A program made the translations under genes and the position numbers. A DNA stretch of 64,000 nt from assembly GCA_965153355.1 (NCBI GenBank), contig OZ231126.1:20522001-20586000 (forward strand), in the 5' to 3' direction. This document shows, in pieces, positions 47,058-62,000 of this stretch. The notes below the pieces were generated by a model that was not told where the DNA came from, ran no database searches, and saw only the letters and a program-made list of their open reading frames with translations. The stretch's first letter is position 1. Each line of letters begins with the position of its first letter. Origin of the DNA: Flaccisagitta enflata. Taxonomy: Eukaryota.

Positions 47058-50000
47058 ATGGAAGAACTTCACCGAATTCGTTGGGATAATAAATTTCCAA
47101 CATTGCCCAAGGATCGAAAAGGGCCCCGAAAACGAAGGTCTCGGAGTTTCACCAATCTCAGGTTCTTATCATTGAGTGTGACAGCTTCATCTTTCTGGCA
47201 GTGATATGCATTGCTTATAGTCGCGGACAAGCGACTCTAAAGGAAACTTTGTTCGTGCGTTGGTCTGACTGTTCGTGGGTCACGCTCAAGTTGGAAAGTG
47301 CTCAGCACGCATTTAAGATGCCATCATTGTGTATGTGTATACGCGCATGCGGCATGCGCATTTGTGTGATTTGTGTGTTTGTGTGGATCCCTCAGGCCTG
47401 CTTTTCCTTCCGCGACGTAATTGTAACCCCGCGTCAGTCGCGTTACTTGTTTTTGATTGTTAGAATAAATGCTATGTCGGTGACGATCTTATGACGGTGA
47501 CTTCTATTAGTGTATGCGCTGCAAATGATTCGGTGTCTTTGTGTGTGTGCGTGCGTGTTTGGAGTAAGGTAATGTTTTCCATCAGATACAACTTTTAGGG
47601 AGTTGCCATTAAAATATTCCCAACCCCTCTTCAAGAGACAGCACGAAGAATGCGAGGCGTCGATCTTCTTTGAAACCGGCGGAAGACAACTTCGACGAGT
47701 GCGTCGTCACCATCGATCAGATCATCAACACTTTCAACGCCGCCGCTGCTGCCCTCGACGAGTCGACGAAGGAATCGAGGAAAGAAGCGGAAGCGGGAAA
47801 CATGAAGGATTTCGTCGCCGGAAACGCGAGACCCATTAAAAGGTGATTGCATCTATTGTCTCCTTTTATTTGCTTGTTTATTTCCCTGAAAACACATAAT
47901 TAAATGCGTGTTGTCGGTTTCAACCTTGGCGTGTGACGGTCTTGATCATTCAGTCAGATTTTGACATTTTTGTGCAGATCGCGATCTCACCAACACATAT
48001 CCCACGCGTCGCGGAAAAGAGGGGAACAAAATCACGGCTACAACAAAAGCTCGGAATTTGACTTGTCCCATCGCGACGATGAATTGGGGTAAGAATTTGA
48101 CGACGACAACGACGGCAACAGCAACAGCAACAGCAACAACAACAGCAACAACAACAACAACAACCACAACAACCACAACAACCACCACCACCACCACCAC
48201 CACCACCACCACCACCACCACCACCACCACCCACCACCACCACCACCACCACCACCACCACCACCACCACCACCACCACCACCACCACCACCACCACCAC
48301 CACCACCACCACCACCACCACCACCACCACCACCACCACCACCACCACCACCACCACCACCACCACCACCACCACCACCACCACCACCACCACCACCACC
48401 ACCACCACCACCACCACCACCACCACCACCACCCACCACCACCCACCACCACCACCACCACCACCACCACCCACCACCACCACCACCACACCACCACCAC
48501 CACCACCACCACCACCACCACCACCACCACCACCACCACCACCACCACCACCACCACCACCACCACCACCACCACCACCACCACCACAACAACAACAACA
48601 ACGATAATAACAAAAACAACGACAAAAACAAAAACAAAAAAACACACACACACAAGCGCACTAACAGCACATACACGACGTTGACTTTGGCAGCAGTAAC
48701 AACAACAACAACAACAACAACAACAACAACAACAACAACAACAACAACAACAACAACAACAACAACAAAAACAGTAACAGAAAAAAAAAACAACAACAAC
48801 AACAACAACAACAACAACATCAACAACAACAACAACAACAACAACAATAACAACAACAACAACAACAACCATAATAACAACCGCACACACACCAGAGGTG
48901 CCGATTCTGCAATGCTAAGCGGCAGACAAGCGCCAAAGTGCGGTAGATGTGTTAGGGACAGAATCTTGCATGCCCCCACACTTCCAAGCGCAATCCCATT
49001 CTCACCATGGCGAAGCGGTCCTAGGTCTAGAAGGGTTACTTGAGGCGCTTGGGCATGCCTGCCATGTCTTGATAAAGGAAGAGTCCGTTGGATATTGAGG
49101 GAATTGTATTGCATCTAGGAGAGGGAACAGGCTCGAAGTAGTTACGGTGTTGATGGTTGATAAACGGTGTTGATTATTGAAGACTACGCGGACAGCTATA
49201 CTACCCTATACAAGGGGCCCTAGTGATACCTCATACAATGTAAAGATAAGGAGAGAATACGGTTATTGATGCATCGGTGAATAAGAATGACAATCAGGTT
49301 AATGATCACTGGGACTGATATTACAACAATGAAAGAGGTAACAACGATCAGAGCTATGGCTACTTCACGGTAATATACATCACATTCTTCCATGGCATTA
49401 ATAGAGTCCGGCCATGCTACTTTACAGTTTTTCATCCCTTACATACTTCCCCTCGTCAGCTACATACGTCCTCGGATGTAAAATCCTGACGAAACAAAAC
49501 AAGTGACAAATCAGATGAAAAACGGACAAGCCGAGAGGAGAAGCGACAAAATGATTCTTTCTTATCTCATAACATTTATCAATGGCAAAATTTTATGCAA
49601 GAGTTCGATGAGAAGATATGCGAAACGGAAGTCCATACACATCCAGAGCGAAAGAAAGAGTTGCGGCCTTCGACTTGGCATTGGAATGGTAACTAACGCA
49701 TGATGATGACAAGGAAATCTTTAAAAGGTCGTAGCGAACTCCGATGTAATGACGGCACACACCGCCCGTCTGATGGCACCAGAAGAACAAAGTGGTTCGT
49801 CTGTCTGCTACAGAAGAACTAAATGTATAGCAAGTGACGGAGAGGGTAACTTTTGAGAGCTTTCAGGAGAGAATGGCGAAAACAAAGATGACGTTTTGAG
49901 CCACATTCGAAAGGGAAGGAGGGCCCGCAGCGACTTCAGCGCATGAGAGATTGGCGATGGAGATTGGCGATGGAGTGTGACGACCTAGTAGTATTACAGA

Positions 50001-59000: not shown

Positions 59001-62000
59001 CGGTCTCTATCAGAAGAGGACTGGTGGCTTAGCTGCTGGAGCTCGGATTGGAGTCCATTCATCTGGAGACGACATCTTTTGAAGGACATTTCCAAAGCGT
59101 CAAGACCATCGTGAAAAACGACTGCCGCTGATGCACCTGCAGTGTCAGCGGATGAAGCAACTGGTCCTTGGTCTGCGAGGGACGTTTGGAGGCGAAGAGC
59201 TATTTTTTTGGCATTGTCAATCGACATGGCATCTTCGTCGCAACCAAGGTCGATCTCCTGACGGTAGATTTGCGGCAAAGCTGCTCTGAATCTGAAGAAG
59301 AATTTGTCCTCCCAGTTGGCTTGTTTTTCATGGATCATGATGGCGTTTTTGATTCTCGTAGCCAATGCGTGAAAGCTCTCCTTACCATCCCATTTGATGG
59401 AATTCTTATTGATCCGTCATTTGTATTTTTCCTGTGGGTCAATAAGCAAGCTCTGGAGCTCAACTTTGAGTTCCTCCCAATCTACTTTGACGCAGTTTTT
59501 GAGAACATCACGGGCTGTTGCGTCCAGTTTGATTGGTAGCCACTGTCTGCAGGGGAATTGTTGACGAGCTGGTGTTGTTGCACCTGTTGCAACAACGACT
59601 CCGTTTTCGAGCAATGGCAGCCATTTGCTTAAGACGTGTTTCCCCGATTGGAAATTCTCGACAGGGATGGATGTCGCAGGAGTCTCATTTGCATCCGGCG
59701 CTGGGTCAGGCATTTTGGAAGAAGGTTACCACGTTTCCAATGTTCAAATGTTTTAAAACGAATGTTTTTGTAAGAACACAAGTTTTGAATAAGAACGACT
59801 AAAGATTACCTAAAAACAAACCTTAAAGCACGACTGGGGCCCCAAAAAAGAAAGTCATATCTCGTGGCGCTGTTCCGTGGGAAAGGAGACGAAATCCACT
59901 GGTGTTCCACAAGCCTGCACCTGATCCCTCACGGCTGCAGGGGTCGAAGTTATTGGCGGGACGAGTATACTAGACAGTTGAAGACGTCTGAAGAAGAAGT
60001 ATTACCAGCTGGATTTAAAGAGAGGCGGCGAGTGTACCAGGCAGCGACTGGGACACAGGTCGGGCACACTGCCACGAGGAGGCACTTGAGTAGGAAGGGG
60101 GAGACCTACTGCATAGGACTCCCTGTGCACTTAGCGGGAAGATTGAGCAGGCACTTTGGAACCTGACGTAAAATCGTTGATCGTCTGGCAATCCCCGAAT
60201 ATAGTCGCCAACTTGACAAAGACTGACTCGGAATATGGAAAGGGTAGCACAAAGGGCTCAAGTCGGCCGGTGTACCACTGTTAGGGACAGAATCTTGCAT
60301 GCCCCCACACTTCCAAGCGCAATCCCATTCTCACCATGGCGAAGCGGTCCTAGGTCTAGAAGGGTTACTTGAGGCGCTTGGGCATGCCTGCCATGTCTTG
60401 ATAAAGGAAGAGTCCGTTGGATATTGAGGGAATTGTATTGCATCTAGGAGAGGGAACAGGCTCGAAGTAGTTACGGTGTTGATGGTTGATAAACGGTGTT
60501 GATTATTGAAGACTACGCGGACAGCTATACTACCCTATACAAGGGGCCCTAGTGATACCTCGTACAATGTAAAGATAAGGAGAGAATACGGTTATTGATG
60601 CATCGGTGAATAAGAATGACAATCAGGTTAATGATCACTGGGACTGATATTACAACAATGAAAGAGGTAACAACGATCAGAGCTATGGCTACTTCACGGT
60701 AATATACATCACATTCTTCCATGGCATTAATAGAGTCCGGCCATGCTACTTTACAGTTTTTCATCCCTTACAGATGTGGCTAAGGGGCGGGGGGGGGGGG
60801 GGTGGGAGAGACGGTTAAGGGGGAATCAAGGGGGAAAAGGATTGAAGGAATGTAGGGAATGCCAGATTTTCAATTTCACGCAACTGCTCCCTGTCCAGCT
60901 TGTCTCGGTGGTTGAAATGCTCATTTGCATATTGCAGTTAAAAGTTTTATACATGCCTCTTTAAGATTTTAAAACCAAAATTGCAGTCGTTGTAAGTGTC
61001 AAATATTTCTTTATTTTTATGGCCGAGTGATGGCCTGATGATTTCGTGATAGCAATGCAAAATGGCGAATCTATCTAAGAAAAGTTGACTGTCAAACACG
61101 ATTGCGTTTTGTTTAAAGGGATGTCCAGTGTGTAAAAATTTCGTTAGTTATGTGGAATACTTTCAATTTTTGGGTCGTAGGGACTTCCGGACTCGACTAC
61201 AATCGAAGGGACTCTGCCGTGCTGTCTGTACTCGGGAGCACCCGACGGTGATTGCGCTTGTGCCAGCTTGTGCGTGCAGCTCTACTGCTAACTTGGTGAT
61301 TTTGTCGCAATTTCTGGCGAATTTCATGACCTCTTAGCTACAGAATTTTGGGATCTAGCTTCTAGTTAATTATTTAGCAATTTTTTGAGAGACCTAGCTA
61401 ATCTAGCTAATACTAGCGATTTTTTGACAAATATCTAGAAAATTTGGCTAATTTTAGCTATTTTGGATGTTTTCTACTATTCTACCTAATAATTACTGTT
61501 TCCCTGATTTTTTTTATGAACTTAGGTTCCTAATTTTACAATCAGATCTGGTCATCTGGCATGTATTAAAACTTGTTTAATACAACTTTTTACCTTTTAG
61601 CCACTCACTTATTTAGCTTTTTTAGTTGCGTGCTACACGACTCTACACCCCACTTTGTCGGTCCGTCGGTCCGTCCGTCGGTCCGTCGGTCCGTCGGTCC
61701 GTCGGTCCGTCGGTCCGTCTGTCACACTTTACTTTTTTTGTTTTTTTTTGGTTTTTGGGATCACTTCTCCTGCCCAAATGATCTGGTAACCTCAATTATG
61801 GCCCCTGCCCACCCGCACGCGACTGGGGTAGCCGTGTATCCGGCCTTGTTTGAAATGTGGTTGTGGGAGGTTTCAACCTCTTCATTAAATACACAGAGTT
61901 CTACATTAATATATGCAAGTATATCAGTTAGCTTTTTTTTTTAACTAATTAGTTTTAAAGTTTTCTTTTTTTGCCCTACCTTAAAAGGCCCTCCCCACTC

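Follow-up and report, generated by a model that had tools for sequence, protein, structure and literature searches.

A loaded Transib/RAG-like DNA transposon as the likely source of old sequence inside a young gag-only retroelement of Flaccisagitta enflata

Introduction

How can old, repeat-rich sequence come to lie between two long terminal repeats (LTRs) that have hardly diverged? The question is raised by an 11.8-kb LTR element in a 64,000-nucleotide stretch of the Flaccisagitta enflata genome (GenBank assembly GCA_965153355.1, contig OZ231126.1, positions 20,522,001 to 20,586,000 of the forward strand), which is called the window here and whose own numbering is used below. The genome searched comprises 794 Mb in 9 contigs, and within it the window is G000:C1:20522001-20586000. 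A preliminary description of this DNA had taken the element to be a large retroelement that carries about 9 kb of cargo (49456-58400) in its RNA. We find that the window copy is a member of two known kinds of element, one nested in the other, namely an LTR family that is gag-only and related to Ty3/gypsy, and non-autonomous transposons of the Transib/RAG-like type.

An insert bounded by transposon ends

The LTR element lies on the minus strand (Table 1). As had been described, its LTRs are nearly identical, with one mismatch in 494 bp between 48950-49443 and 60279-60772 (0.1% change per LTR, upper 95% bound 0.56%), and a perfect GATG target site duplication (TSD) stands on both flanks. A TGG-initiated tract resembling a primer-binding site (PBS) begins one base past the 5' LTR, and a polypurine tract (PPT) precedes the 3' LTR. 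The reported lack of pol was confirmed as well: a related 1824-aa pol, used as tblastn query, had no match in the 11.8-kb element nor in any of 15 sibling loci, and no pol or transposase remnant was found within the window element. No Pfam family scored over the cut-off in 10 frames of the element; the 19 Rfam matches were all below the gathering score, most of them within a fold-back repeat, and no tRNA gene was found in the window. The gag gene contains one premature in-frame stop near 59417-59419.

The extent of the cargo, however, had to be revised. The 14 other full-length copies of the family align to 48950-50275 and 56831-60772, with the middle absent. The sequence CGTCA is single in siblings L032 and L036, where it represents the empty site, and is present on both sides of the insert in the window. 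The foreign part is therefore 50276-56831 (6,556 bp) only, and the adjoining 49444-50275 and 56832-58408 are ordinary family sequence. Without the insert the window element measures 5,262 bp, the family norm; it is 11.8 kb long, and not the usual ~5 kb, because a DNA transposon inserted into an LTR copy.

Judged from its sequence, the insert is one unit, a non-autonomous Transib/RAG-like DNA transposon (the outer transposon below), with CACAATA at the left terminus and CACTGTG at the right. Since transposon termini and a 5-bp duplication delimit the interior, the DNA transposon is its demonstrated vehicle. The outer left end has 43 genomic matches. Perfect 5-bp TSDs were found in 16 of the 18 relatives with both ends seen, the other two being offset by one base; ten of the 18 are 0.9-1.6 kb long and eight are enlarged to 2.6-12.3 kb. 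None of the interiors of 7 other enlarged copies is collinear with that in the window. The target sites are GC-rich (64% GC in 17 TSDs vs 43% background).

CAC ends, 5-bp TSDs and GC-rich targets are marks of the Transib superfamily and RAG-like transposons (PMC1131882, PMC7204232), and all three are shared by the outer family with non-autonomous Transib elements (PMC1131882, PMC8355894). In contrast to Transib, the distal conserved motif here is not an A-rich nonamer, and copies swell with nested repeats. The family also resembles plant Pack-TYPE elements (PMC8903248), which are non-autonomous, flanked by terminal inverted repeats (TIRs) and have large heterogeneous interiors; unlike in Pack-TYPE elements, no host gene fragment or donor locus was found here among the sequences compared, and the interior resembles nested repeats. 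As a side observation, the pairs L114/L120 and L126/L128 are dispersed duplications of at least 6.5-9.5 kb with 94-96% identity, and each pair includes an outer left end with the same flank.

The insert is private to the window. It is carried by 0/14 other full-length copies; an outer-element end lies within 30 kb of only one of 54 family gag loci, which is the window itself, and none of the 25 other outer left ends that were read has an LTR-family flank. These results do not support the idea that the interior travels with the family RNA as shared cargo. Absence of this interior from every other copy, which the preliminary description had itself named as evidence to the contrary, is what was found in this assembly.

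A large family of gag-only LTR elements

The N-terminal 219 residues of gag were used as query, and the best 150 of 581 candidates were scored (149/150 used, one duplicate row being dropped). Among these best 150 genomic matches, 54 are family gag loci of at least 80% identity. Thirteen complete siblings were measured, nine of them 5.0-5.3 kb long; the fourteenth full-length sibling is 11.7 kb. Perfect 4-bp TSDs, differing between loci, flank 12/13 of the complete siblings, their LTR pairs show 0-11 differences, and in 12/13 the gag position is occupied by a frame of 419-487 codons.

A model of gag from 28 homologues (pLDDT 73) predicts a capsid fold, the Foldseek rows listed being retroviral, Arc, PNMA/PNMA2 and Copia capsids only, at weak scores (best E 0.011). 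Gag had no Pfam match over the cut-off, and in the PDB its profile matched nothing but coiled coils. Among pairs that share less than 96% identity, most have about 2-3 fold more synonymous than non-synonymous codon differences, which indicates that the family gag is under selection.

An RNase H match downstream, among the best 150 RNase H matches, was found at 0/54 family gag loci vs 11/95 distant gag loci. The nearest pol-bearing relative has 58% gag identity and the order protease, reverse transcriptase, RNase H, integrase, and the gag-only family is therefore Ty3/gypsy-like. No autonomous partner was found at the 24 exact genomic sites of LTR end plus PBS, all of which belong to the gag-only family. 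A search for longer gag-pol homologues of the family gag found none, which is weak evidence, and the pol-bearing relative L192 shows no LTR pair, with an assembly gap upstream. More generally, related gag genes form a large radiation genome-wide (581 candidates, best 150 scored), in which pol may be missing from several distant groups as well; open Ty3/gypsy pol frames of 1500-1970 codons are numerous in the genome.

The LTR pair, the sibling set, the capsid model and the absence of pol bear out the earlier view of a recent non-autonomous gag-only LTR element. That view had placed it near both large retrotransposon derivatives (LARDs) and TR-GAG elements. The likeness to the gag-only TR-GAG grade holds, while LARD identity was rejected because the element is gag-coding. 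LARDs are treated as non-coding (PMC13570524); they resemble the window element in being non-autonomous and longer than 4 kb, but the family here keeps a gag frame and the extra length is private to one copy. The remark that such elements come mostly from plants fits TR-GAG, which comprises gag-only non-autonomous LTR elements of plants (PMC13570524), but zebrafish BHIKHARI Bik-1 and Bik-2 are likewise gag-only and non-autonomous and show that such families exist in animals too (PMC12067270). MaLR elements are called non-autonomous in PMC1331978, but no statement of a gag-only make-up was found there, and they are not counted as a further precedent. Like TR-GAG and Bik, the present family has paired LTRs, PBS, PPT, one conserved gag frame and many young copies, with no pol in any copy examined and no partner evident in the assembly. 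It is unlike them in being Ty3/gypsy-like, with a 4-bp TSD and a gag that ends in an Arg/Asp/Ser-rich repeat, the likeness to both being one of grade.

Old cargo, little-changed LTR and leader

The private interior of the outer transposon (50766-55225) was compared with about 1 Mb of genome DNA. Repeats cover 69% of it and no unmatched gap exceeds 256 bp. Its short repeats, putative HINEs in the preliminary description, are high-copy; HINEs are Helentron-associated elements marked by subterminal inverted repeats, a 3' hairpin and a TT insertion site. No second collinear copy or donor was found among the best 40 candidates for 53230-55225 or for 54055-54460, and 50766-53229 was compared with the same ~1 Mb; with cut-and-paste transposition no donor copy is expected. 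The long microsatellites noticed before are present. So is a Tc1-type miniature inverted-repeat transposable element (MITE) with diverged arms, which are 83% complementary vs 86-90% in 11/11 relatives. This MITE is on average 92.1% identical to its 11 best copies (best 92.6%), and those 11 average 94.9% mutually. The repeat at 54055-54225 is 89% identical to its best copy, and the left arm of the outer transposon 94% over 330 bp. Cargo repeats thus stand 7-11% away from their nearest copies. A second long fold-back element, with 311-bp arms that are 87% complementary, lies elsewhere in the window (27115-27747).

In the right arm of the outer transposon sits an inner element, whose ends are 96-99% identical to the closest 8 copies and which, on that measure, is young. 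Perfect 5-bp TSDs flank 23 of its 26 relatives with both ends seen. Related ends have been mobile recently in both families, at 96-99% identity in the inner family and up to 99% in outer subfamilies.

To date the LTR copy itself, private changes were defined as differences at columns invariant in 26 other copies; 27 of 30 copies were kept, three with interrupted 5' ends being removed. The window copy has 2 private changes in 308 LTR columns and 1 in 343 leader columns. In an aged sibling, whose LTRs mismatch at 12 sites, the counts are 9/350 in the leader and 10/404 in gag. It can be seen that the nested repeats are older than the LTR pair, as had been supposed: the cargo is 7-11% from its nearest copies vs less than 1% private change in LTR and leader. 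Therefore the interior was not built up inside this LTR copy or inside a parent of the cargo's age.

Other private inserts, at other positions, occur in 5/14 siblings, and three such inserts show TIRs with an 8-bp duplication. Sibling inserts of several kb contain older repeats (74-94% identity), even where the two LTRs of the copy do not differ. The siblings concerned are L038/L039, L042, L036, L044 and L045, with inserts of 0.3-3.8 kb; L038/L039 (G000:C5:45750683-45762420) has identical LTRs, two inserts and a total length of 11.7 kb.

Origin of the composite

The boundaries, the TSD and the empty site of the insert are observed. From these we consider it likely that the 6.5-kb transposon left another site already loaded and moved, by cut-and-paste, into a young LTR copy. 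A 5.26-kb gag-only LTR element, of a family with at least 54 copies, would have been reverse-transcribed and integrated recently at the window locus, with protease, reverse transcriptase and integrase presumably supplied in trans by a pol-bearing Ty3/gypsy element. The outer transposon, normally ~1 kb, would have gathered 4.5 kb of nested repeats elsewhere, a pre-loading suggested by the ages, and would then have been excised as one piece and have entered the 3' internal region of the LTR element, where 5 bp were duplicated. A younger inner element of the same superfamily would have entered the right arm of the outer transposon before or after this move. With a loaded DNA transposon in a young LTR copy, old cargo between young LTRs needs no RNA transduction.

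Several observations weigh against this history. Gag in the window has 15 private changes in 409 columns, including the stop, which is the most of the 27 copies and differs from its own LTR and leader (Fisher p ~1e-4). In region 49444-50275, private changes occupy 12 of 828 columns vs 4 in an insert-free sibling (14 in the other insert-bearing one); together with the changes in gag, this may reflect ~1% ageing of the window LTR copy. An insert load of 6/15 copies is heavy for such young LTR pairs. The window's outer subfamily includes just one relative, at 90-94%, and recent mobility is therefore read for it from other subfamilies. No transposase gene flanked by outer or inner TIRs was found at the loci inspected. 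Public runs X1, X2, X3 and X5 were compared with 56360-61600, 14 runs with small shares and 4 with none being left aside. Among their short contigs, all from other individuals, X2 has the junction without insert, X3 the outer element lacking the inner one and X5 the LTR beside another flank; none of the contigs listed crosses this locus, so that they decide neither for nor against it. As to gag, uniform ageing was dropped as a reading because LTR and leader are nearly unchanged, and G-to-A hypermutation, with 4/15 changes, is not supported. Sequence comparison shows the family copies to be mosaics of one another, and a recombinant gag from a divergent lineage, which fits these mosaic identities, may be the source of the changes.

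Could the transposon instead have entered a parent LTR copy elsewhere, so that the whole 11.8-kb composite was transcribed, packaged in trans and integrated here with its LTRs reset? A gag that is disabled and unusually diverged beside an LTR and leader that are not is what a lineage copied in trans should show, and L038/L039, with its two inserts in or before gag, has a similar total length between identical LTRs. However, the counts given above (one of 54 gag loci, namely the window, and none of 25 other left ends) give no sign of a composite that could be parent or sister; from a parent of the cargo's age ~5% change would be expected in LTR and leader, where 3/651 columns were seen, and mosaic copies can account for the divergent gag. 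We regard this course of events as unlikely. It is less probable still that the LTR element is older (~1-2% divergence) and that its LTRs were homogenized by gene conversion, the loaded transposon arriving by cut-and-paste within a longer time window. The decay of gag, the private changes beside the insert (12/828) and the heavy insert load of the family would fit such an age, and LTR clocks are noisy, since L045 has 11 LTR mismatches and yet a gag 99.8% identical to that of a copy with none. Against it, the leader, which is single-copy and not resettable by LTR conversion, has only 1 private change in 343 columns, and contigs of four other runs match parts of 57010-57796 at ~99%. A misassembly, or independent solo LTRs, is very improbable: although the public runs compared all come from other individuals and none of their listed contigs covers the whole element, the three nested independent TSDs (of 4, 5 and again 5 bp), a PBS and a PPT in their proper places and an alignment collinear with 14 siblings speak for one genuine composite. 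Insertion of a loaded transposon by cut-and-paste into a young LTR copy is therefore preferred.

Asymmetric ends of the outer and inner families

Both nested families have bipartite ends with an offset of 9-11 bp between left and right, which resembles the 12/23 rule, and in this they are like the ends on which the antibody-gene recombinase acts. In the outer transposon of the window a distal 10-mer lies at offset 34 on the left and 24 on the right; in its family the offset is 33 or 34 in 24/25 left ends (43 in one) and 24 in 10/10 right ends. The inner element of the window has a distal 11-mer at offsets 25 (left) and 36 (right), and the same values were obtained in 26/26 left and 29/29 right ends of its family, across subfamilies with differing proximal bases. 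At inner-family loci the gap from motif to end peaks at 21 and 32 (25 and 28 cases), and genome-wide the inner end pattern has 112 matches vs 38 for a reversed control. CAC-type, heptamer-like termini are present at all four ends in the window and in nearly all relatives. The inner right end fits the TIR consensus of protostome RAG-like (RAGL) transposons at 16/17 positions, the other three ends at 6-8/17. No A-rich nonamer at 12/23-type spacing was found at these ends; a conserved distal motif is present, and it is not A-rich.

Such a nonamer is also absent from RAGL-B TIRs (PMC10629977). Asymmetric TIRs of the one-turn or 12/23 type are described for several Transib families (PMC1131882, PMC8355894), the ends of PflRAGL-A have a 10-bp asymmetry (PMC10629977) and those of AanRAGL have 4/13-bp spacers (PMC9435367). 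The ends studied here are like those of PflRAGL-A and AanRAGL in being bipartite, with an asymmetry of 9-11 bp (PMC10629977, PMC9435367). It has been proposed that invertebrate RAGL transposons rely on the terminal 15-17 bp (PMC7204232). In contrast to that proposal, the inner family varies its heptamer-proximal bases between subfamilies and keeps the distal 11-mer and its spacing fixed.

Candidate transposases

Transib- and RAG1-like frames of 771-984 aa are present in the genome. An open Transib-like frame of 771 aa (L193:2907-5219, minus strand, G000:C4 ~63.561-63.564 Mb) is closest to HzTransib (E 8e-10), with no TIR pair in 2-3 kb of flank. A RING-bearing RAG1-like frame of 984 aa (L194:2825-5776, minus strand, G000:C3 ~97.706-97.709 Mb) has amphioxus RAG1L as best match (E 8e-26), and upstream of it, on the same strand, is the end of a kelch/PHD-like frame. 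A second RING-RAG1L frame, of 960 aa (L195:1456-4335, plus strand, G000:C4 ~29.920-29.925 Mb), is 46% identical to the 984-aa frame, lacks the CCGHC tail and has one public homologue (P0031, 43%). Ahead of it by 110 bp, on the same strand, lies a RAG2-like kelch and PHD frame (L195:2-1345, plus strand, with the 5' part in L197:3037-3450), which in structure is matched best by amphioxus RAG2L (E 5e-6); its Pfam RAG2 score is 22.2 bits vs a cut-off of 21, and generic kelch families score higher. A short repeat of the window type just upstream of this pair argues against contamination. No TIRs were found around the pair in 3.4 kb upstream or 5 kb downstream. Two further relatives are a split RAG1L (G000:C8:38376986-38378732, minus strand) and a 380-aa C-terminal half (L146:4545-5684, plus strand, G000:C6:12746544-12747683), which has the CCGHC tail in the form Cx2Cx3GHx4C and an upstream part that is not recognizable.

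The same-direction layout of RAG2L and RAG1L distinguishes AanRAGL from other RAGL transposons (PMC9435367) and has been termed atypical (PMC10629977). We found it reported for the alga Aureococcus only, no animal case appearing in a literature search that scarcely reached subscription journals. A tentative possibility, which we think rather doubtful, is that both nested families are live substrates of a RAG-type transposase that would enforce a one-turn end asymmetry through a distal motif other than the nonamer, move units of 6-12 kb and be encoded by the same-strand RAG2L-then-RAG1L pairs at two loci. Ends of the nested families were not found in 0.7-13 kb of flank at five RAG1/Transib-like loci (L143-L150, L193, L194, L195/L197; three further matches left out), and since neither TIRs nor such ends were found near the RAG-like genes, the link from gene to end is a hypothesis.

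Other features of the window

An Artemis (DCLRE1C)-like gene is present on the plus strand at 7129-7863 and 10664-12973; its N-terminus matches human Artemis at E 2.5e-18, with a DRMBL domain downstream. It lies ~36 kb from the LTR element, probably by coincidence. Further frames are a MazG-like domain in a 288-aa frame (5417-6280, plus strand), an open LINE frame of 1053 aa with endonuclease and reverse transcriptase (20349-23507, minus strand) and an acidic open frame of 1624 codons without Pfam match (38142-43013, plus strand).

Table 1. Features of the LTR element and of the transposons nested in it (window coordinates)
Feature	Position	Strand	Remarks
TSD of LTR element, left copy, 4 bp, GATG	48946-48949	.	
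3' LTR, 494 bp, TG...CA	48950-49443	-	at least 40 genomic matches, mostly paired, others at 91-95%
Polypurine tract	49444-49454	-	present likewise in 13/13 siblings
3' internal region of LTR family	49455-50275	-	95-100% to siblings L032, L039 in four bins
TSD of outer transposon, left copy	50271-50275		last 5 bp of 3' internal region; empty site in L032, L036
Outer non-autonomous Transib/RAG-like DNA transposon	50276-56831	.	6,556 bp; CAC...GTG ends; TSD CGTCA
Private interior of outer transposon	50766-55225	.	older short repeats, microsatellites, short unmatched gaps; no transposase or pol remnant
Fold-back repeat, 21-bp units	53592-54046	.	arms 72% complementary
Tc1/mariner-type MITE	54469-55030	.	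TA-flanked, CAGT ends; older than the LTR pair
Inner non-autonomous RAG-like/Transib element, 995 bp	55772-56766	.	CAC...GTG ends; TSD CAGGG at 55767-55771 and 56767-56771
Non-coding internal region of LTR family	56832-58408	-	first 5 bp are right TSD copy of outer transposon; sibling alignment
gag-like gene	58409-59713	-	N-terminal half of predicted capsid fold; tail an Arg/Asp/Ser-rich repeat; no zinc knuckle seen
Primer-binding site	60260-60277	-	LTR end + PBS: 24 exact genomic matches, 24/24 beside family gag
5' LTR, 494 bp	60279-60772	-	paired with 48950-49443
TSD of LTR element, right copy, 4 bp	60773-60776	.	

Significance

The locus is a case of ordinary nesting. It cautions that where a young LTR pair encloses old sequence, a loaded DNA transposon can account for the contrast. 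The gag-only family, which in this invertebrate is both large and young and is under selection, extends a grade known from plants and zebrafish. If the proposal on the transposase were true, this would be an animal whose RAG-like system is active, atypically organized and provided with dozens of natural 12/23-like substrates. The many recently active copies, whose distal motif spacings are fixed and differ by one helical turn, and the RAG2L-RAG1L frames in tandem are natural material for studies of the origin of the 12/23 asymmetry and of the protein domain that reads it.

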